Source: Minutocellus sp. GHC0000111 (taxonomy: Eukaryota). Taken from it: DNA of 64,000 nt. The stretch is from positions 2,294,001 through 2,358,000 of the forward strand of contig OZ361260.1 of the NCBI GenBank assembly GCA_977018835.1. Reading direction: 5' to 3'. Position 1 is the first letter of the stretch. Every line of letters begins with the position of its first letter. The position numbers and the translations under genes are program-made. Under the pieces are notes generated by a model. The model saw nothing but the letters and a program-made list of their open reading frames with translations. It did not search any database and was not told where the DNA came from. This document shows positions 2,076 to 50,415 of the stretch, piece by piece.

Positions 2076-2926
<851 letters not shown>

Positions 2927-3361
2927 TGAACCTCGTTCGCAGAATAATTCCGTGAAACGCTTCTTTCTGATGCGGTTGTTCGGTGAAAAACTGCGGCCGC
3001 ATCCGCAAAATCTGGTAGTTTGTCTTGTATTGAAGTGTCAAAAAGAAACGTTTTGGCTAATTATTAGTCTAATCGTCACAACAGTCACAACAGAGTCTGT
3101 CCGCCTCCGTAACCTCGCCCAAGTGGCTGAGTGCGCGAAGCAGCACATACGAGTACTAGTACGAAGTCCGTTTCGCGAGAAATCGAGCGCAGGGTCGGGA
3201 CCAAAACAGCGACTTTTTGGGCCCGCAACCGCCTGAATCTTAGATCTACCGGCATTGAATACATGTACAATGCAAAGTACATGTATTGCAGCAGCTAGTA
3301 TCCAGATCTACAATCCAATCTAGTATTATTAAACACAATATAACTTAAAAGCACCGCAGGA

Positions 3362-5086
3362 CTAATTATCCATGGTTGGATCAGCAGGAGGAGGAGCGAT
3401 AATTTTCCCATCTATCCGAACCATGCCATTTTCAGTCGGCCTGAAATCCTTTCGCACCCCAACATGAATGCCTTCACCGTTTCCAAGAAAATCATTGTTG
3501 CCTTTTGCAACGATTACCTTCTTTGCAATTCTATGAGCCTGGATGTATGCCGATGCGATCTTCCAGTTTTCCAGCCCCATCCAAACTTCCTCCGCTGCAT
3601 CCCAAGTCTGATCCTCTGTCAAAACCTTCAGCCCTTCCCGATCGCGGCACAACATTGTATGCTGCTTTGACATGCAAGGGAAAACAGACAGATCAAGAAC
3701 ATTCATATGGGGCATTTGCGGGGCCTGAGGTTCCCAACGCCATCCCTTGTCCCGACAGTATCCTTCCACATATTCCACAAATTCAGTCTCGGCATGGGGC
3801 CCAGCATTGTCGCCCTGGAAAATAGGGACATAGCCTTCAAACTTTCCGGCAGGTCCGACCAAAGCCTCAACATCCGGAAATATCTTGTTCTCAAACAAAG
3901 CTTTCAGTGGGAACTTGGGATTATCAAGGGTGCCATGGCTGCATCCAGTCACCGCGCAATCCACAAGGTATAGATCGTCTTTCTTCCGAACCACCGGGCC
4001 GCAATATTTGATTCTACCATCTGCCTGCCGCACCGCCTCCCTTACCATCTGCCTCGCAATTTTATGCGCCTGAGCCCGAAAAAGTCCAAGCTTGAACGCA
4101 ATGCCGCCATTCTCAATGCTGTCAATAAAAGCCAAGGCAGTGACAGCCACCACCATGCACTTGTTGATGTGATTTCGGTGATATGCCGAGAAGGACCGAG
4201 GATCAATACCCAATTCTGCAACTTGCTTGGCATACGATCGAAGAACCAAGCCCCAAAACCACTTCTCATCGAACATAACAAGGAGAAACTTGCCACCGCC
4301 GAGCCCCCAATTGTTTCGGAATTTCCGCGCAAATGCCAAATGTTTCTCCATCTGATGTGTAGTAAGGAGAGGGATGATCCTTTCGGCATAGTACCGGAAC
4401 CCTTCCCGCGACATTATCCACCGCCGTATTGCCGAGTAGGAACACCAAAAGTTGACATCCACCTCCAGCTCCCGCCAAGATTCCCGAGGATTTCGTATCA
4501 GAGCATCAACAATAACATCTCGAATGTATGGCTGCATAGCCAGATGAGATCTCCTCTTCATCTCCCACATCGCCTTCTCAGATGCAGGTAGAGCACCATA
4601 CGCCTTCATCCATCCCGAAAATCGTGCACCATGCTCTGCGCTGGACAGCACCGAATAGTCCACCTTTGCCTGCTCCCTGCACTTGGCAATTGCAAAGAGA
4701 CATGGTGCAGCATACCGCCGGGTCGCCGTTGCAAGATCGTCGATGACAGAACGGAAGGCGGCCGAATCAGATGAATCATCGGCACTCGTTGGGAAGCAGT
4801 ATACAGGTCCAAGTATGCCGATCGCGTCATCGAAATGCTCAGCTTCGACTTCCGCCCGAGACACAAATGGATTGAACACATACTCACCGCTGTCTTGGCC
4901 ATCATCATTGACCAGGAGAAAACTCTCAAGATTGACGGGCCCGAGGATTTTGAGAAGCACATGCTCCTCAATGTCGTCAGTCGACTCGTCTGCCGGGCGA
5001 TAAGGGCCGAGAACATGCCCCTCGACATGGATGATGTCGTGGCAATAACTGAATCGGTGTACGACAAGGCCGCGGAGATGTTCCAC
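3362..5086 (-). CDS. Mariner-type transposase (plant-mariner-like, DD38D)
   Basis: Motifs MFDEKWF, FQGDNAGPH and QAPQMPHMNVLDLSVF; 38 residues between the second and third Asp. Start codon uncertain. Confidence 0.9.
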   Translation of the reverse strand: MEHLRGLVVHRFSYCHDIIHVEGHVLGPYRPADESTDDIEEHVLLKILGPVNLESFLLVNDDGQDSGEYVFNPFVSRAEVEAEHFDDAIGILGPVYCFPTSADDSSDSAAFRSVIDDLATATRRYAAPCLFAIAKCREQAKVDYSVLSSAEHGARFSGWMKAYGALPASEKAMWEMKRRSHLAMQPYIRDVIVDALIRNPRESWRELEVDVNFWCSYSAIRRWIMSREGFRYYAERIIPLLTTHQMEKHLAFARKFRNNWGLGGGKFLLVMFDEKWFWGLVLRSYAKQVAELGIDPRSFSAYHRNHINKCMVVAVTALAFIDSIENGGIAFKLGLFRAQAHKIARQMVREAVRQADGRIKYCGPVVRKKDDLYLVDCAVTGCSHGTLDNPKFPLKALFENKIFPDVEALVGPAGKFEGYVPIFQGDNAGPHAETEFVEYVEGYCRDKGWRWEPQAPQMPHMNVLDLSVFPCMSKQHTMLCRDREGLKVLTEDQTWDAAEEVWMGLENWKIASAYIQAHRIAKKVIVAKGNNDFLGNGEGIHVGVRKDFRPTENGMVRIDGKIIAPPPADPTMDN

Positions 5087-6000
5087 TCCTCAGTTACCTT
5101 CATCTACAAGTTCAACGGCGTGAAGCGGGAGCTAAAGAAGCTCAAGCTCATCCCGGATTGGCTGTGGTGCGAGATCCGGGACGAATGCATCGTACTGCCG
5201 ATCCGAGGCGAGTATCATGCCATCGTTCAAGATGAAGACGAGATGGAGGCCGAACCGTCGCGTCGCACGAACCACAGCCCCATCTCGTCTTGTTTCGCCG
5301 GTCGGATGAAGCGTTTTTCGGCAGAAGACGAACACGTCACGAAGAAACCCACCAAAACCCAATCTCGTTCGTCACCCATTCTTTGACCGTCCAACACCAT
5401 GGAGGTCCGTCGGCGTTGCGCCGGCGTATAACTATGTTTTCGTACCAAATACGCATTCATTATCATGTTTGGATATAGTTGAAGCTTACTGTGTCCTCAG
5501 ATTGGCCTCCGCTGCGTGTCAACGCCACGAACCATCGGCCTGCTTTTCCTCCATCTGTCGGCCGTTCGTTTCTCTGGGCTGGTGCCATTGCTCCGTCTTT
5601 GTGCTCGTCGTGCTCCCGTTGTGATGCCCCAGACCCTCTGGTACTTTCCCACGTTGTTGTTGATGATAAACTGCCGGGATTGCGCCGCACCCCCCGTATG
5701 ACCGACTCTCGCTGATCCCGACCGATCGCATCCCCACTCGACCTCCCGGAGTTCCGACGACAACAATTTTGCGCCCGAGGAGAGACAGACAGTGCTGGGA
5801 TAAGTTTATGCAACAATCAACCCGACAAAGGGACTTTTTGGTCTGGGAGATAAATGGGTGAGTTAAGAAGGACGTGATGTGTTTGTTTGGGTGTGCCATT
5901 TACTTTTTTGCTCAATCGCGACATGCTGTTTGTAAAAGTTGATTGGATCATGCAATTCATTTGTTGTTGTGTAGCAGCAGTGTAATTTCATTTTCTAATT

Positions 6001-6990
6001 TTATACATGCCCTGCTCCCATCTCTACATCCTCATCTCCATCGGTGGCCATCATGATCATTTGTTGGCGCTTGTCATCAGTTTCTGCTTTAACAGCTTCG
6101 GTCCTTGTCCTTTTCCTTGTTCTTGCCACCCGAGAGTTTCGCTCCCGCCTCTCCTCGACCTTTGGATTGGATGCCCTCTCCTCAGCCTTGAACTGCGCCG
6201 TCTGTTGGGCCTCATGTCCCTTGACGCCCTGAGTCCGACGATCTTCCTTAACGCCCTCTTGGTGGTGGGCTCGCTCTACAAACGATTCGTCGAGCCAACA
6301 GATGCCGCCCCATCCATTCTTCACTAGCCAAATGTGTTGGTCCAAGATGTGATCTTCGAGTAAGTGCCACTTGGGCGTTGTGCTAATGCCGATTGCCCGT
6401 GCTTGCTTGAGGGCACTTGCAATCAATGCTTCAAGCTCTCTCACAGCCTTCTTTGCCTCATCATCCCATTTCATGTGCCATTTCAGAAACCTGGAATGTG
6501 TTGCGTCAAGAGTGTGGAGCAAATTAGAGCAAGCTTTGCAGAGCTCTTTGATGTCGTCATCCGTCATGCCATCTTCCTCGCGATTGTGCTCTAGGAGAGC
6601 TCCTTTGGTGGAGGTGTCATGGTGGATGAACTCTGTTGTCCTTGGTTTCTTCTTGTTGTTGCCATCAGAAACATTAATGGACAAAGCTCTCCAGCATTCT
6701 GCCAGCACTGCCCTTATTTTACCTGAGTCGGCCGCCTCAATGCCGGCCTTTTTCAGGAAATGGAAGTGAGGGGCATCGTCGTCCTCGGCATCATCGACAG
6801 CTCCCATCTCTGGCTCGCCATCACCGTGCTTCTGACGACTCTTCTCAAAGCACTGCTGCATGCATGCTTCAAGTGCAGCGTCCTCTCTTGCAACATCAAC
6901 TTCGTCCTCATAAATGGGCACATAGTCCTCGTCTTCGTCGTCATCGTCCTCACTGATCTCGCCGGCCTCCGTCGTGGTCAGGGTGCCCAC
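6001..6990 (-). pseudogene. Transib/Chapaev/RAG1-like transposase C-terminal remnant
   Basis: TPKWHLLEDH...GGICWLDESFVERAH resembles the KxHxxxxH...E-x-x-ERxH C-terminal signature. No N-terminal catalytic region is recognisable; 6990-7800 holds only broken ORFs. Confidence 0.6.
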
Positions 6991-9483
6991 CGTCCCAACA
7001 TCGTCGTCATTGTCCCACCCATCGTCCTGGCCATTGTGTGCCCACCAGGGAGCTTCTGGGCCTCGAGCAACATCTGCCTGTTGATTTCGTAGTCCATCGC
7101 CGCATGTCCCACCGACACATGTGGTGCGACCGACTTGAGGAATGCATTACATGCCTTCGTCAAATTGAGCCGCGGCGGCGGTGTTTCGAGGCGAAATTGT
7201 TGCTCGACCGTGACCACGCATGTCGAAAGCCAGCCATCCATCCATCATCATGGAGAGCGTCGGCTGCACGAGGATTGACAGAACCGAGGCGAACAAACAT
7301 GCTCTCTTTTTGCATGGGGTTCGCTGAACGTCGTCGGCAAGGCAGTGTCTTGATGCCATTTCATCCCATCCATTCTGGTTGTCTGTCCTCACAAAAAACA
7401 CATCGTGGTCAGTCTTCTTCGTGTTTCTTCTTCTTCAAACCCAAGATGCCCGCAGTGTGCATGACGGCGCCGCACATGATGGGACTGCATCCCAACACAT
7501 TCATCAAGGAGTCGTTGTTGCCGATGAAATTGTAGTAATGAAGTTCCTTTCTGCGAAGACGGACGAGTGGTTCAGCCAGGGCGTCCTGCACCGCAACTCT
7601 CTGTCTGCGGCGTTGACCGCGGGATTGCGGCCGTTGTTTTTTTTGCTCATGGAGAACCATGGATCGAGACCAACTGGAACATCACCAGGATGTCGGGAGC
7701 ACCTGGTTGGTCTCGTGCCGTAATTCTCCCACACCAGCGCGAGATATCGCCTTCGTTCTGCACGTAGCGGCGGCAACTTGAATTTTTGCCGCGCCATGGT
7801 GGCTCGCGTTGGGCGCGCCGGTCGGTTGCTTCGCGCGCCGGCCGGCCACCGAAAGTGCGACCAAAAGTATGCGAGTCATCCGGCTGGCAGATGGTGCTGT
7901 GGAACGCGTCCATTTGATTAGAGCCGCTGAAATCTAAAGTCTTATCCGAATTATTGTTTCACATGAAGATAAATCAAAATTAGAGTAAAAATAGCCATTT
8001 TCTTAAATATTTCAGCATGACTATTCTTCGAGGCGCTTTTCAATCCCCTCGAAAGCAGTCAAAAACCGGGCGCTCGATTTCTCGCGAATCTGACCTCGTG
8101 CTGCATGTAATGAAAAACAAAGCAAACAGCCAAAATGGAACTATCAACTCGCGGTATCGGCTGCTCCGCTGTCTCCGGCAGCGGCATCGACACATTCCGA
8201 CATCATCGCCGGTTCAAGCGTGGCAACATGCGCAACGAATGTCAATGCATCCTCACGGGTCGTGCTTGATTTGCTGCACATCACGCGAGTCCACGTTCCA
8301 CGCTGGTGCTTGCTTTTGCGTCTGTTTCATCATGTGCCAAGATACAGACGAACCGCTTGCGCCGCCGCCTTGGCCGCCACCAATGCTGGTCTCGTCGTCG
8401 CGCATCGTTACATTAGCTGTGTCTTGTATCTGATTGCCGCCCATTGGGTGCCGTATCTGATGTTCCTTGCTCGGCTCCACGGCCATGGCTCTTCCCGGCG
8501 AACTGAACGACGAACGGACCGTACTTAGGGGGTGTGCATTGCTGTGACATCCAAGACTGTTTTAGTAAGCAATGTTGTTGACTCCACTCCCCTAGCTTTC
8601 TGTTTGTCAGAATTTCTGTCTGAATGATTTTTGAAGTTTCTACGTCGACTACGTGACGTCATCATCTCACCCAAAAGGCCTTTTGCATTCTCACTCGCTC
8701 GACATCCAACAGAGCAGCAGTCCCTCCACTTTCATCGGCAACGGTATCTACCACCGCGCCGCCTTGACCAACAAACCACCGCCGCCGCTCGACGCCGCGT
8801 CGGAAGAGGAGCTCGTACAGCGCGCGAATACGTTCGCTCCCGCGCACGTTCTGGTGAGTGCTGTCTTTCTTTTCGTTTTCGCTCTGTTCCATTTTGCTGT
8901 TTCTTCTGTTTGGAATTCATCTTTGGTTCTCCTCCCACCTCTCACGTCCCAACCTACCACCCATCGTCCTCAATACCATACCCCATGCCCCACACCATCC
9001 ACAGGCCACAGCTGCCATATCACTGTCGTCCGTCGGTCCCGTTCCTTCGTACGGCCCGACCAACCACCCCACGTCCGTTCGGTCCGGCCGCGTATCCAAA
9101 AGTCCCCACCGGTATTCAACTCGCCGACCATCTGCAACTTCTGTCCGACTGTACAGCGTCAACGCCGCCGTCATATCCGATACCTCCTCGGTAAGTTGTT
9201 GATGGAGGGAACGACCGCGGCATCGCACCGATGGCTGTATTGATTGTCTGTGGTGCTAGTACGCGTCGGCGTCTGCGTCGGCAGTCTGCCGTGGTCCATC
9301 GTCGGCGGCCATCAACGTCGTTGCTACATTCTCGGTGATGGCCAAGAGATATTGCAATAGTCGTCTCATTGTCCAGCCCGTTTGCTCTTCGTCCCTCGTC
9401 GACACCCTAAACTCCTATCCCCTTTCTCCAACAGACAAACTGGTTCCTCATCACGCCGCATCATCACCATCACCACCATCACG

Positions 9484-11331
9484 ATGAAAAACAACATCTG
9501 CTCAGTTTACATCAGTCAGCAAGGAATTGGCGGCAAGAAGTCGACTGGTGATGATTCCACTGCAACATTCGTTTCGGACGACACCAACCGAGAAAGCCAC
9601 AAGTCACCGGCCTTCACCCAAAAGGCGATTCGCGATGCCGTCCCGTGCCATCCGAACTCCAGTGAGGACACTGCCCTTCTTACTTTGGTCACCGGTTGTA
9701 CTCCGTATTATCTCAGCATCCTCGACCCCAAGAATCCTGGATCGTCCACCAACCCAGATAGGTTCAAGGCATCGTGCCATGGCCCAACAGCCAACTGCCC
9801 CTACGCCGACCTCAAGAATCTTCCGAGGGTGCAGCCCGGCCTTGAGTTTGACTGGCCGAGGGAATTTGAGTCCGCCCTCAATGCGCTGTTTGTAGCGGAT
9901 ATGCACGGCACCGGCACCGGCAACGACCCCCGCCCCGAGTACCACCAGATCGTCTACCTCCGAGGCCCCGACAACGTCCTAGGAGTCGGTCCTCATTTTG
10001 ACTACGGTCGTGTTGCCTCGTTCATGCTACGTGTCAATTTTGAACTGAGCGCGGTATCGGGCAAGCTAGTCTTCCACGCCCACAAGGCCGTTGCCAAGAA
10101 GGGCTCCACCGAGGAGGTGGAGGAGGAGGAGAGGGTTGATTCTGGATATGAGCTGGCCTCAAGGAAGTTGATCACCAAGGTCGAAATCGATCGTCCTCAG
10201 GGATCCAACCAATATGGAATCTCCCCAGGCCCCAACGGATCTGGTCTCTTTGTCGACTCGGGCGACGGCACGGGCATCCTCCTCAAGCACTCATTCGAGA
10301 TGGACGAGCGCAATGGCCAGCGCGTCATTTTTGTCGCCGACTTTCGCTACCGCCGCATCGAGTCCCTCCATTCAGCTATCGAGAGGCTCAAGAAGGGTCC
10401 TCTCTGTATCGCCAATCACCTCTCCGACAAGGCCAAGGCCAAACTGCAGGACTACATCGGTGGTCGGTCCCCGCGCGAGACGCTCGAGGCAGCCATGGAG
10501 GCGGCCAACCGCATTCGAGCCACCCCCATCTCGGATGCGATCCCTCGCTGCGAGAATCACGGCACGTGTGGTGGATTCGCCCTCACCTACAGCCCAGATG
10601 ATGACAAGATCAACGGGAAGTACGTCCCTCTCCGCTGCCATGAATGCAGGAAGGAGGGGGATTTGACCCGCCCCTGCCGCGGTGGTTGTGGAAAGAATTC
10701 CCGTCGGTCTGGTCACGAGTGGTGCAAGGAGTGCGGCAATGCGGGCGAGGGGTACAAGTGCAGCGGAGCTACCTGCGGTGTTTTGTTGACAAGTGAGAAC
10801 AGTAGTCCCGGAGCGAATTACTGCAGGGAGTGTCAATCAGCCTACAAGAAGAGAAAGCATGATAGCGACAGGAGTGCCGCGGTGGAAGCTGGTGCAAAGT
10901 TGCAAGAGTCCGGACGCTCGAGAGATTCCCTCATTGGCTACCAGGACATGCGTGCCATAGTCAAGGCCGTCTGCGAGTGCCGACAGGAATACGGCACTGT
11001 TGGTGTCACAAAAGAGGTCATGACGAGGCTTCTGGGACAGGCGGGTTTCCCACGCACACTCACCATAAAGCAGGTACAACACGCTTGGAATGGCAAAACG
11101 GGAAAGCCCGAAACATACGAGCAGTACGAAGGATCGGCCCAGGATTTGGCGAACGAAGCATTGGGGGATGTAGTTGAAGCCAAGTGCCCAACGTGCGGAT
11201 ATGAGAAGGATATCTGGTCTTTCAAGATCGACAAGAATCAAAGGTGCAATGGGTGCAAGAAGCCAGGCAATATCGGAAGTTCATTCCAAAGTGATGCAAT
11301 GCTACGTAGACATGGCTTTCTGCTACTGTAG
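9484..11331 (+). CDS. AlkB-like 2OG-Fe(II) dioxygenase fused to multiple Cys zinc-binding motifs (insertion cargo)
   Basis: Uninterrupted ORF. HQIVYLRG-VGPHFD (HxD), LKHSF (distal His), RVIFVADFR (terminal Arg pair), then about eight Cys pairs (CHEC, CRGGC, CKEC, CREC, CPTC, CNGC). Upstream donor-like sites at ~8853 and ~9191 and an acceptor at ~9434 suggest 5' exons. Confidence 0.65.
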   Translation: MKNNICSVYISQQGIGGKKSTGDDSTATFVSDDTNRESHKSPAFTQKAIRDAVPCHPNSSEDTALLTLVTGCTPYYLSILDPKNPGSSTNPDRFKASCHGPTANCPYADLKNLPRVQPGLEFDWPREFESALNALFVADMHGTGTGNDPRPEYHQIVYLRGPDNVLGVGPHFDYGRVASFMLRVNFELSAVSGKLVFHAHKAVAKKGSTEEVEEEERVDSGYELASRKLITKVEIDRPQGSNQYGISPGPNGSGLFVDSGDGTGILLKHSFEMDERNGQRVIFVADFRYRRIESLHSAIERLKKGPLCIANHLSDKAKAKLQDYIGGRSPRETLEAAMEAANRIRATPISDAIPRCENHGTCGGFALTYSPDDDKINGKYVPLRCHECRKEGDLTRPCRGGCGKNSRRSGHEWCKECGNAGEGYKCSGATCGVLLTSENSSPGANYCRECQSAYKKRKHDSDRSAAVEAGAKLQESGRSRDSLIGYQDMRAIVKAVCECRQEYGTVGVTKEVMTRLLGQAGFPRTLTIKQVQHAWNGKTGKPETYEQYEGSAQDLANEALGDVVEAKCPTCGYEKDIWSFKIDKNQRCNGCKKPGNIGSSFQSDAMLRRHGFLLL

Positions 11332-11402
11332 ATGCGTAGCAGCTCCCTAAGTTAGACTCACTCTCTTTTGTTAACTTCATATTCAATTGAGCAAACGAAT
11401 AG

Positions 11403-12532
<1,130 letters not shown>

Positions 12533-26805: not shown

Positions 26806-28326
26806 ATGCCCAAGATTTCCAGGAACAACAGTCTCGAAGGCGCAGACATTTGGGGCTCCAGTGAACAAGATGCTGGCGGCGGCGTCGACCCTTGTCAGTC
26901 TCGCAACAGCAGCAGGCCGCCATCTCGAAGCGGCAGTAGGATATCACTTTCAGGCCAGAAACGCCCAGCTGTGCAGGATGAAGACATGATCCTCGGGGAC
27001 GAGGCAAGTCACATGACAACGGGCGAGCTTCGTAATCTCTGCCAGCTGCTCGACAACGACATTCGAATCATGAGGAGCGACATGAATTTGATTTCATACC
27101 AACAAGCTGAGCAGAGGAAGAAGATCAAAGAATCTTAAGAAAAAATATTGCAGAACAGTCAACCGCCGCTCCTCGTGTCGAATGTGGTGGAGATATTGGA
27201 TCCTGCAGAATTCAAAGATGAGATGGTGTATGAGTTCGACTCCGATGACGGAGGAGATTCCCGCGATCTCGGCGAAACCATGCGCAATCGACCCTCCGCT
27301 GTGATCAAAACATCGACACGGCAAACCATATTCCTACCCATACCAGGATTGATCGATCCAAGAGATCTCCGTCCCGCCGACTTGGTTGGTTGTAACAAGG
27401 ACTCCTACCTCATCCTTGAGAAGTTGCCCGATGAACACGACCGGCGAGTGAAAGCTATGGAGGTAGCCGATAAGCCCACAGAGAGCTATGCAGACATTGC
27501 CGGGTGCGATGCTCAGATTCAAGAGCTCATTGAGGCTGTTGTCCTACCTATGACTCACAACGACATGTTCAAAGCTGTTGGTGTTACTCCTCCCAAGGGC
27601 GTCCTCCTGTACGGACCGCCCGGCACCGGCAAAACTTTGCTCGCGCGGGCCTGTGCAGCTCAGACCAATGCGACGTTTCTCAAATTGGCCGGCCCAGAGC
27701 TCGTGCAAATGTACATCGGCGATGGATCAAAAATGGTCAGAGATGCATTCCAACTCGCCAAGGAAAAGTTCAACGACGGCGATACAGCCGGGGTCATCAT
27801 CTTCATCGATGAGCTGGATGCCATCGGAACCAAACGCGAAGGAGGCGACCGATCCGGCGAGAGAGAGGTCCAACGAACACTCTGTGAGCTACTAAATCAG
27901 CTCGATGGCTTTACCTCCAATGATATGATCAAAGTCATCGCCGCTACAAATCGCCCAGACATACTTCACCCTGCCCTTCTACGCTCTGGGCGCCTGGACC
28001 GCAAGATTGAGCTTCCGATGCCTACCGAAGAAGCTAGAATCAAGATATTAAAAATCCATTCCAGAAAGATACACTTGGACAAGGGCGTAAACTTTGAAGA
28101 ATTGTCAAGGACATGCGAAGATTTCAACGGTGCGCAGATCAAGGCCGTTTGTGTAGAGGCCGGGATGCTTGCACTTCGCAGAGAGGCAAAGGCGGTGCAC
28201 CATGAGGACTTCGTCGAGGCTATCGGCTACGTTGCAACCAAGAAGAAAGGTTGCTTGGACTACTTTGCCAAAATATGCTTTAGCTCTACTTTTTTTAATA
28301 TAGGTAGCGCGCGTATACTCGAATAA
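26806..28326 (+). pseudogene. RPT5: Intronless RPT5 (26S proteasome AAA-ATPase) paralogue with a premature stop
   Basis: [48 protein letters not shown]. In-frame TAA at 27136-27138; the normal stop position after LDYFA reads AAA. Confidence 0.9.
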
Positions 28327-30457: not shown

Positions 30458-30719
30458 TGCATGTGGCAGCATGTGCTCTTGGCAACTTTGACCGACTTGC
30501 ATGCATACGTGTTCCGTCTGGCCGTCGCTTTTGAATGTTTTCCTCTTGCTTGCGAATCGAATCGAATCCCCCCCCCAGCGGAAATCATTATGGTACATGT
30601 ATTGATACTCGTTAATGTAGTTATTCAATGTGATTGGATACGTATCACAATATTAAAGTAGTGACTTTCGTCTATATTTATTCATCTCGTGAGGAAAGAT
30701 GATCTTGTACGTTGACGAT

Positions 30720-30737
30720 ATGTAGGAATTCCTACAT
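30720..30737. repeat. 18-bp perfect palindrome ATGTAGGAATTCCTACAT
   Basis: Self-complementary; the same core recurs at 35982-36011. Confidence 0.85.
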
Positions 30738-30816
30738 GTATAATATCATCATCTCTCAATCGCCACACCAGCTTTTCCAGCACCAATCATGTATCTTCAA
30801 TGAAATGGAGTTGCAT

Positions 30817-35706: not shown

Positions 35707-35981
35707 AGCGATAGATACCAAGCATTGAATGAATAAGATAAGCTTAAAATTGTGCATTACGAGTCAAAATTGGCCGCCGACGGATGATGTTTCAAAAAGG
35801 ACCGAGAAGAATCCTTGAAGCCAGGCGGCCATTCACGTGACTGCACATGCATTGCTGCACGGTTGTTTGTTGTTCTGCTGTGCAGAGAAGGTTTCCTGGG
35901 AGAGAAATGATTGGCCGGTTGGAAGGATGTGCTGATGATGATGCCGAAAATTGGAAAAAAAATCCCATCATAAAAACACCG

Positions 35982-36011
35982 GTAGGAATTCCTACATGTA
36001 GGAATTCCTAC
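35982..36011. repeat. 30-bp perfect palindrome: GTAGGAATTCCTAC-AT-GTAGGAATTCCTAC
   Basis: Read directly from the sequence. Confidence 0.9.
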
Positions 36012-36127
36012 ATGTTGACAGCGAAGACAGACAGCTAGGCACAACTCTACGTCTCAGAGCATCGGTACATGCATCAATAGATCTACATATAGTCTACCGG
36101 ACCGGTGTTACTGTTGCCTGCCACCTG

Positions 36128-48607: not shown

Positions 48608-50415
48608 TTAGGCAAAGTAATCCAGACTGCCCTTCTTCCTTGCCGCAACTACGCTTGTGGCCTCAACAAAATCTTCATGAGAAATCTCGCTGTGTTCGTT
48701 TCGGAGGGCAAGCATACCGGCCTCGACACAGACAGCCTTGAGCTGTGCTCCGTTGAAATCCTCGCAGTTGCGAGCCAATTCCTCGAATACCACGTCCTTT
48801 CCGACGTTCATCTTCCGGCTGTGGATGCGCATAATCTTGGATCGGGCCTCCTCGGTGGGGTGCGGGAGCTCGATCTTACGATCCAACCGTCCCGAACGGA
48901 GCAGGGCAGGATCGAGCACGTCGGGTCTGTATTGTGGAGGCGAGAAAGGTTGAATGTTCTGTGTGAGTAAAACAATATCAATGCTAAGCTAAACTAAATG
49001 CACATGGCCCCTTAGTATCAGACCGCACCCAGGTACTTACCGATTGGTCGCCGCAATGACCTTGATCATGTCGTTCGACGTGAAGCCATCAAGCTGACTA
49101 AGAAGCTCGAGCATGGTCCGCTGCACCTCGCGATCACCGGACTGGTCACCACCGAACCGCTTGGTACCGATGGCATCGATCTCGTCGATGAAGAGGATGG
49201 CACCCTGGCTGGTGCCGTTCTCGATCTTCTCCTTGGCCAGATCGAAGGCATCGCGGATGAGCTTGGCACCGTCACCGATGAACATCTGAACGAGCTGCGG
49301 TCCCGCGAGCTTGAGGAAGATGGCATTGGTTTGGTTGGCGCAGGCACGGGCCAGCAGGGTCTTGCCGGTACCGGGCGGTCCGTGAAGGAGGACGCCCTTG
49401 GGAGGGCGGATGCCAATGGTATCGAACATGTCCTTGTGCGTCATGGGGAGGACGACGGCCTCGATGAGCTCCTGAATTTGCTTGTCGGCTCCGCCGATGT
49501 CGGAATACTCCTCGGTCGGCCGCTCGTCGACCTCCATGGCCTTGACGCGGGAGTCGAATTCGGTGGGAAGCTTCTCGAGGATGAGGTAGGAGTCCTTGTT
49601 GGTGCCCACCAGGTCGGAGGGTTTGAGGTCGTCCACCTCGACGAGGCCGGGAACGGGCAGGTAGATGGTTTGTCTGGTCGATGTGCGGATGACGGCGCTC
49701 TTGGTCTTGCGGGTAGCGTTGGCGTCGGTGGCGGCACCCTCCTCGTCGGCCTCTTCGGCTTCAAGGCCTGGATGGATTAATAGATGTTAAAGAAGGGATA
49801 AGGGATCTGTTTGGTGAGTGGCATATACGACAAGCAATAATAACTTCTTCAAGCCATAACAATCACAAAACTCCAGGCAAAACAAAAATGAGCACGACCA
49901 TTTGCATGCGTTATTTATTTGTGCATTTACGCCGCGCCTGTCTTTCTTCAACCAAAAAACTCACCATCCTCGGCCTCCGGATCGAGGACCTCCACGACGT
50001 TGCCGACCAGGTACGGCAGCTGCTTGTTGACCTTGACCTTCTCCTGGTTCTCCTTGATCCGCTCCCGCTGGCCCCGACTCTCGTGGGCGATGCGCTGCAG
50101 ATCGCTGCGCATGATGCGAATGTCGTTGTCGAGGAGGTGGATGCGCTGCCGGAGCTCGGCGGTCGACATATGGCGGGTCTCGTCCTCCAACTCGGCGTCG
50201 AGGGCGGCCTCGGCGGGATCCTGCTCGGGGGGCTCGTCGTCCTTGGACTCTTCGGCACCGCCATTGCCGGAGGAGGAGGCGGACGACGAGGCGGCCGTGG
50301 CCTCGCTCTTGTCGTCGTCCTTTCCTCCTCCGCCGTTATTGCCGGAGCCGGATTCGCCGGCGTCGCCGCCTCCCCAGATGTCGGCTCCCTCGAGGTCGTC
50401 GTTGTCGTTGCTCAT
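48608..50415 (-). CDS. RPT5: 26S proteasome regulatory ATPase RPT5 (PSMC3)
   Basis: Exons 50415-49965, 49767-49041, 48926-48608. [41 protein letters not shown] followed by a stop. Confidence 0.98.

Follow-up and report, generated by a model that had tools for sequence, protein, structure and literature searches.

A transcribed gene for a likely oxygenase with predicted zinc ribbons, set in an insertion that splits a diatom CDPK gene

Introduction

In a stretch of 64,000 nucleotides from Minutocellus sp. GHC0000111 (hereafter the window) a CDPK gene is interrupted by an insertion, and the insertion contains an open reading frame of 615 codons. A sequence-only reading of this DNA proposed that the frame encodes an AlkB-like dioxygenase fused to zinc fingers, with which a mobile element counters its own silencing. 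In diatoms, transposable elements (TEs) are silenced by CG methylation via DNMT5 (PMC9998398), and an eraser of the TET, AlkB, or DEMETER type is not mentioned in the main text of that study. The locus raises three questions: is the gene real, to which class does its product belong, and did a transposon bring it into the CDPK?

Results

The insertion and the two CDPK alleles

Four RNA runs were available, two of which (X7 and X8) represent one sample. The CDPK and its insertion are laid out as follows.

2132 to 2893, + strand: 5' half of the CDPK with the N-terminal part of the kinase, frameshifted by small extra stretches (frames, Pfam, RNA contigs)
2894 to 11419, no strand: the whole insertion, in the activation-loop codons of the CDPK (joint 2893-11420 in three of four runs; right border placed to within about 12 nt)
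11420 to 12532, + strand: 3' half of the CDPK with the C-terminal part of the kinase, two introns, and EF-hands, with 7 extra bases at 11970 (Pfam, RNA contigs)

The insertion of about 8.5 kb is real, since RNA contigs from three of the four runs connect 2893 to 11420 and thus join both halves. This joined allele differs from the window by four substitutions in about 850 nt and is free of the window's extra bases, a net 15 in 2204-2893 and 7 at 11970. Because the extra bases are missing from the joined allele, the window carries the dead one. Several of the extras resemble short tandem duplications (TA, 3-6 nt) and are possibly excision footprints from local hopping.

Only 5 bases lie between the CDPK halves in the joined allele. 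A paralogous kinase contig from the same runs has a longer loop, L-S-R-H-D-D-A-N-R-G-V-M (translated from a loose contig end). Taken together, these two observations mean that a clean target site survives in neither allele and that both have lost loop codons there. Since the site is short in the other allele too, it was likely broken and then repaired in two ways. The joined, expressed allele is in frame, with an activation loop much shorter than that of the paralogous kinase.

A spliced and transcribed gene

The gene at 9484-11331 is real, spliced, and transcribed, and consists of two parts.

8779 to 9483, + strand: 5' leader; its GT-AG introns 8854-9004 and 9191-9434 are spliced out (RNA contigs)
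9484 to 11331, + strand: intronless 615-codon ORF encoding protein P0001 (stop-free translation to 615 amino acids; RNA contig pieces)

Intron 9191-9434 was spliced out in all four runs and intron 8854-9004 in three, and it is these spliced joints that demonstrate transcription. After splicing, the leader measures at least 310 nt and is free of ATG, and the start Met of P0001 is aligned in register with both of its full-length relatives. Overlapping contigs of the RNA libraries, drawn from two studies, span 9434-11307 and differ from the window by one substitution and no indels. No RNA contig cover was found at 8101-8700. A loose contig end at 10111, which appeared in one run and did not recur, was not taken to indicate a second copy. 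Because the libraries also contain DNA-like contigs, the depth of RNA cover was not used to rank expression.

The proposal of an intact 615-codon ORF inside a CDPK-splitting insertion was thus borne out, and the RNA check suggested with it located the gene, leader spliced, in contigs from both studies. It had further been claimed that the ORF stayed intact while its neighbours decayed. This is correct for the ORF and for the CDPK halves with their extra bases; the transposase frame of the mariner described below, however, is open over 575 codons and shows 4 differences in 1936 nt of RNA contig. The joined CDPK allele and the oxygenase transcript, found in the same runs, fit heterozygosity, and the intact, transcribed gene appears to be on one allele only.

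A small protein family

A word-indexed protein search returned a single relative, P0003 (52% identity), and HMMER over 1.84 billion representatives matched P0001 itself and one fragment, P0004. The P0004 cluster also contains P0005, a full-length protein from an MMETSP1322 transcript, with the taxon id of Minutocellus polymorphus (Cymatosiraceae). Two full-length relatives, P0003 and P0005, were thus found, 52-53% identical to P0001; the pairwise identities among the three members are 53, 52, and 63%. A search among shorter proteins yielded 0 relatives from 2990 candidates, scans for related loci in viral, metagenome, and prokaryote contigs found none, and an exact look-up of eight other frames gave no match, which is uninformative. 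P0001 is a member of a tiny, lineage-restricted protein family of the diatom lineage.

P0005 diverges from the family right after HxD (residues 177-181), the exact point at which fragment P0004 stops, and P0006, from the same cluster, ends earlier than P0004. In the relative, introns or local frameshifts may account for these breaks.

The N-terminal domain and its class

9916 to 10359, + strand: likely Fe(II)/2-oxoglutarate oxygenase domain, residues 145-292 (PF13640-type motif order, invariance, block test, Atlas features)

The motifs of this domain run in the order H171, D173, R176..N185, G193, H269, and R280, with an acidic insert of low conservation at 201-228. The H-x-D...H...R order expected of the Fe(II)/2OG dioxygenase superfamily is present as an order along the sequence. 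The H-x-D (H171-F-D173), the distal H269, and R280 had all been pointed out from the sequence, and they are invariant in the three full-length members. As only three sequences are available and column invariance in the core is already 0.55-0.57, these four residues are weak evidence; the corresponding values are 0.32 in the acidic insert and 0.20-0.37 in the C-terminal half.

The spacing of the motifs fits PF13640 better than AlkB. P0001 has R176-x8-N185, G193-x-L-x-F, and R280-x7-R288, where R288 is replaced by H in one member and the sixth position after R280 is an invariant Asp (D286). PF13640 proteins have R-x8-N after HxD, a GGxL strand, and a terminal R-x7-R, whereas the AlkB proteins fetched for comparison end on R-x5-R. 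Both the AlkB R-x5-R and the N-x-Y before HxD are missing in P0001, which has no Asn before Y158.

Library searches did not recognize the domain. Pfam and NCBIfam gave no oxygenase match even at E 10, PHROGs no match at E 1, and PDB sequence searches and phage tblastn nothing significant; neither PF13532 (AlkB) nor PF12851 (TET/JBP) had a Pfam match in P0001. Two AlphaFold models reached pLDDT 34 and 40, too poor for fold searches to carry meaning. In an Atlas feature search with residues 40-305, viral clusters scored 0.93-0.94, with only 137 of the 256 features in common; shuffled proteins attain 0.9 in 4-10% of cases. One of these clusters is auto-named 2OG-Fe(II) oxygenase, and another near cluster carries PF13640 on 25% of its members.

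Direct comparisons were made with fetched sets of AlkB (PF13532), PF13640, and PF13759 proteins. From the alignments we left out 9 of 25 AlkB rows (two wrong frames, seven redundant) and six PF13640 frames (five wrong frames, one long fusion). Neither hhalign nor hmmsearch against the AlkB, ALKBH2/3-like, bacterial PF13640, phage PF13640, and phage PF13759 sets rose above shuffles, with hhalign E values of 0.2-0.54 overall (0.43-0.54 for AlkB) and hmmsearch ranks of 80-308 among 600 shuffles. Against a mixed phage and bacterial PF13640 alignment, hhalign gave E 0.057 (0/25 shuffles) and placed HxD, R..LN, and GxLxF in register, while the other four sets stayed at chance level.

We also applied an ordered ungapped-block test with free spacers, devised post hoc once the resemblance had been seen. 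At profile level the PF13640 blocks scored 30.6 against a null of 7.0±4.4 (0/200 shuffles), while AlkB blocks were equalled by 25/200 and PF13759 blocks by 72/200 shuffles. For single sequences on bacterial PF13640 blocks the counts were 0/150 for P0001, 0/150 for P0003, and 14/150 for P0005, and 0, 0, and 4 of 76 natural control segments. The best PF13640 block chains leave H269 out of register.

The post hoc nature of the block test and the misplaced distal His, together with the missing Pfam family match and the unmodelled fold, hold our grading of the domain at likely. On its sequence the N-terminal domain is probably an oxygenase, and the motif comparisons put the PF13640 (prolyl-hydroxylase/phage-oxygenase) class well ahead of AlkB. 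The AlkB/ALKBH2-3 order claimed for it gave way on two counts: the terminal R280-x7-R288 has PF13640 spacing, not AlkB R-x5-R, and the profile-level score on AlkB blocks was no better than that of shuffles.

Two other readings of the domain were weighed at this point. It could be another beta-rich domain in a zinc-ribbon nuclear factor, its H-x-D...H...R pattern being coincidental; the empty library searches, the mostly non-significant profile comparisons, and the low weight of four invariant residues in three sequences would all agree with that. We consider it unlikely, as two independent kinds of evidence, language-model features on the one hand and motif order and spacing on the other, agree on the oxygenase class. 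The second reading, in which an AlkB/ALKBH2-3-type repair demethylase acts on 1mA/3mC and is targeted to DNA by its zinc fingers, draws on the motif order, on the score of P0001 alone on AlkB blocks (2/150 shuffles), and on AlkB fusions to DNA- and chromatin-binding domains, the latter covered in a review (PMC4738411). It appears very improbable, given the missing PF13532 match and diagnostic motifs, the chance-level profile results for AlkB noted above, and the scores of the two relatives on the same blocks, which are at chance (47 and 97 of 150).

The C-terminal half

10549 to 10833, + strand: six invariant Cys pairs, residues 356-450, predicted to form three C4 zinc ribbons (alignment, invariance)
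10843 to 10857, + strand: basic KKRK motif, a possible nuclear localisation signal (alignment; KRKR in both relatives; the signal function is predicted)
10939 to 11118, + strand: helical segment, residues 486-545 (helices in a low-confidence model)
11185 to 11256, + strand: C-terminal CxxC..CxxC, a predicted zinc ribbon (invariant Cys)

P0001 contains eight Cys pairs (356/362, 385/388, 398/402, 414/417, 426/431, 447/450, 568/571, and 588/591), and all 16 of these Cys are invariant in the three full-length members. Zinc-ribbon matches of residues 356-450 to Pfam were all sub-threshold, and the C-terminal CxxC..CxxC matched PF12760 at E 0.0024 and eS27 at E 0.085, the former below the cut-off. 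The helical segment, which by eye we take to be HTH/Myb-like, matched HTH_59 at E 0.07, likewise below the cut-off. Of the arrangement proposed earlier, about eight Cys pairs followed by a helical segment, the pairs are confirmed and the helices come from the low-confidence model only. Features, motif blocks, and invariance likewise make the fusion of a 2OG-Fe(II)-type domain with Cys ribbons plausible, but on AlkB blocks the profile did no better than shuffles.

PF13640-type enzymes are known mostly as protein or small-molecule hydroxylases. The only pointers to a DNA substrate are thus the fused ribbons of paired Cys, the basic KKRK, and the helices, with Pfam matches that are all sub-threshold.

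Two nested transposable elements

3162 to 8098, no strand: multi-copy Tc1/mariner-type element (terminal inverted repeats, TIRs; TA on the left, TG on the right; differing flanks in contigs)
3362 to 5089, - strand: mariner transposase frame (PF01498 at E 2.6e-6, below the cut-off; 575 codons open)
5273 to 7901, no strand: second element, lying within the mariner (ends CAC...GTG, a 12/15 inverted match; 4-bp GAAC duplication)
6001 to 7146, - strand: transposase-like frame of the nested element, with no Pfam match

The mariner element spans about 4.9 kb of the insertion and is multi-copy, as several different flanks at about 3160 and at 8099 in RNA contigs show. In three of the four runs there are contigs that lack the nested element and join 5268 to 7902; we presume this element to be CMC/Chapaev-like, with RAG1/CMC-like His and Glu motifs in its protein. 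Its gene has 260 members in 19 protein clusters, and one cluster has 57 members, spread over many Mb-scale contigs among the 15 listed. Among the 32 differences listed between copies of the adjacent elements (best-supported rows), 16 are CpG-type transitions, as expected if TEs are methylated here.

The mariner also holds a second open frame, 4775-5386 (+), head-to-head with the transposase and broken by the nested element, with no Pfam or PHROG match. GT-AG joints on the + strand at 5857-6080, 5857-6185, and 6360-6486 in RNA contigs run antisense to 6001-7146 and suggest a possible spliced antisense transcript.

Is the gene transposon cargo?

With the mariner-type element subtracted, 3.6 kb of the insertion remain, and the oxygenase gene sits there, outside the TIRs of both elements. 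The outer ends of this segment have no TIR: their inverted match is 8/15 against a null median of 9, compared with 12/15 for both inner elements. No target site duplication (TSD) beyond chance, no Helitron-type ends, and no transposase frame were found in the segment, and an Rfam search gave no match. A 5-bp CACTT repeat at two insertion junctions is at about chance level among 750 comparisons. The cluster of the oxygenase protein consists of a single member from one contig, against the 260 of the nested element's gene, and a second copy at ≥90% identity is not on record (protein cluster). GC3 of the oxygenase ORF is 0.66, compared with 0.50-0.63 in six neighbouring host frames.

That either recognisable transposon carries the gene as cargo was not supported, as the gene lies outside both sets of termini and has no shared-end copies on record (protein-level count). 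The wider claim that a mobile element carries the gene fared unevenly: the insertion is polymorphic, a presence/absence difference being observed at the CDPK site although no clean target site is preserved in the empty allele, but the gene is outside both elements in a segment without TIR or TSD and its cluster has one member. The sequence-only reading had regarded a single-copy gene with TE-unlinked syntenic orthologues as evidence against itself, and the single-copy half of this appears to apply (protein level).

The 3.6-kb segment could still be an eroded low-copy mobile element, its PF13640-type cargo enzyme oxidising methylated bases against silencing by CG methylation. The presence/absence difference, a gene that looks hemizygous and mobile with no second copy on record, a sparse and divergent family, the elevated GC3, and the CpG-type differences in the adjacent elements are all in line with this, as are the CG methylation of diatom TEs (PMC9998398) and precedents from fungi (PMC12730594) and an orchid (PMC9289625). 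Nevertheless, we regard it as doubtful: the outer segment has neither element ends nor a transposase, the gene lies outside the two real elements with one cluster member, and the full-length relative P0005 is an ordinary transcript of a cultured diatom.

In the left outer piece, 2910-3094 holds nested imperfect inverted repeats, and one contig that follows the window from 3075 has another flank upstream of that point; this may be a small MITE-like unit.

Other repeats in the window

Two inverted paralogues of an AAA proteasome-subunit-like gene, 26997-28326 (+) and 48702-50185 (-), are 21 kb apart with 70-75% DNA identity. A palindromic 20-nt repeat occurs in three copies at 30710-30740 and 35980-36023, flanking an ispG-like gene region; these are possible MITE ends or footprints.

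Discussion

Our preferred, if tentative, explanation, to which we give a little less than an even chance, is that an apparently single-copy gene for a likely nuclear PF13640-type oxygenase was pasted into the CDPK during break repair. In the enzyme, H171, D173, and H269 would hold Fe and R280 would hold 2-oxoglutarate, while the four predicted zinc ribbons would bind Zn and, with the helical domain, tether the enzyme to chromatin. There it may perform O2-dependent hydroxylation of a nuclear substrate, with a DNA/RNA base and a chromatin protein about equally probable. The 3.6-kb passenger fragment would have been captured at the repaired chromosome break and not brought by the adjoining transposons; the mariner probably landed later, since it occupies a TA inside the passenger. 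One observation counts against capture: repair should leave a source copy, and with none recorded at the ≥90% level the data fit a gene that was moved rather than copied.

A more far-reaching scenario would make the gene a hemizygous mobile passenger of Cymatosiraceae-type diatoms. Its phage-like PF13640-class oxygenase, directed to its target by an HTH and the four zinc ribbons, would oxidise 5mC or another DNA base, outside AlkB and TET/JBP, and so shelter the surrounding transposon nest from CG-methylation silencing. We hold this combination to be improbable.

What the gene would mean depends on its substrate. As a putative nuclear oxygenase that the libraries do not recognise, with predicted zinc ribbons, it is a concrete candidate contained in a single ORF. 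If its substrates are DNA bases, P0001 would represent a new class of base-oxidising enzyme, and if they are proteins, a lineage-specific chromatin hydroxylase.

A literature search returned no description of the P0001 family or of a diatom TE-borne oxygenase, although supplements, outside the search, could name such proteins. Related arrangements are known from other lineages. Fungal DNA transposons encode TET/JBP genes that lack terminal motifs and TSDs of their own and are termed passively transferred (PMC12730594; the words diatom, stramenopile, and algae are absent from its main text). There, as here, a putative 2OG dioxygenase gene is found near DNA transposases, but the fungal gene lies inside defined elements, whereas the gene for P0001 lies outside both, is the only member of its cluster, and lacks a PF12851 match. 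Ty3/Gypsy elements of the orchid Phalaenopsis encode an AlkB-type 2-ODD that was tested as an active m6A RNA demethylase (PMC9289625). It provides a precedent for a TE-borne 2OG dioxygenase, yet this enzyme demethylates m6A in RNA, is closely related to AlkB proteins of plants, and is encoded inside LTR elements, none of which holds for the P0001 gene. Giant DNA transposons of Ectocarpus hold extra transcribed genes and nested TEs (PMC12477816).

At the protein level, AlkB/ALKBH2-3 (PF13532) and P0001 have the superfamily H-x-D...H...R order in common, but P0001 is without R-x5-R and N-x-Y. The closer likeness is to PF13640 (2OG-FeII_Oxy_3), that is, to prolyl-4-hydroxylase-like and cyanophage oxygenases, with which P0001 has H-x-D, R-x8-N, G-x-L-x-F, F-x-x-S, the distal His, and R-x7-R in common and which supply its nearest Atlas clusters. 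P0001 departs from PF13640 proteins in scoring below any Pfam threshold, in its acidic core insert and about 140 extra N-terminal residues, and in the parts fused to it: zinc ribbons, of which four are predicted, a basic motif, and a helical domain.
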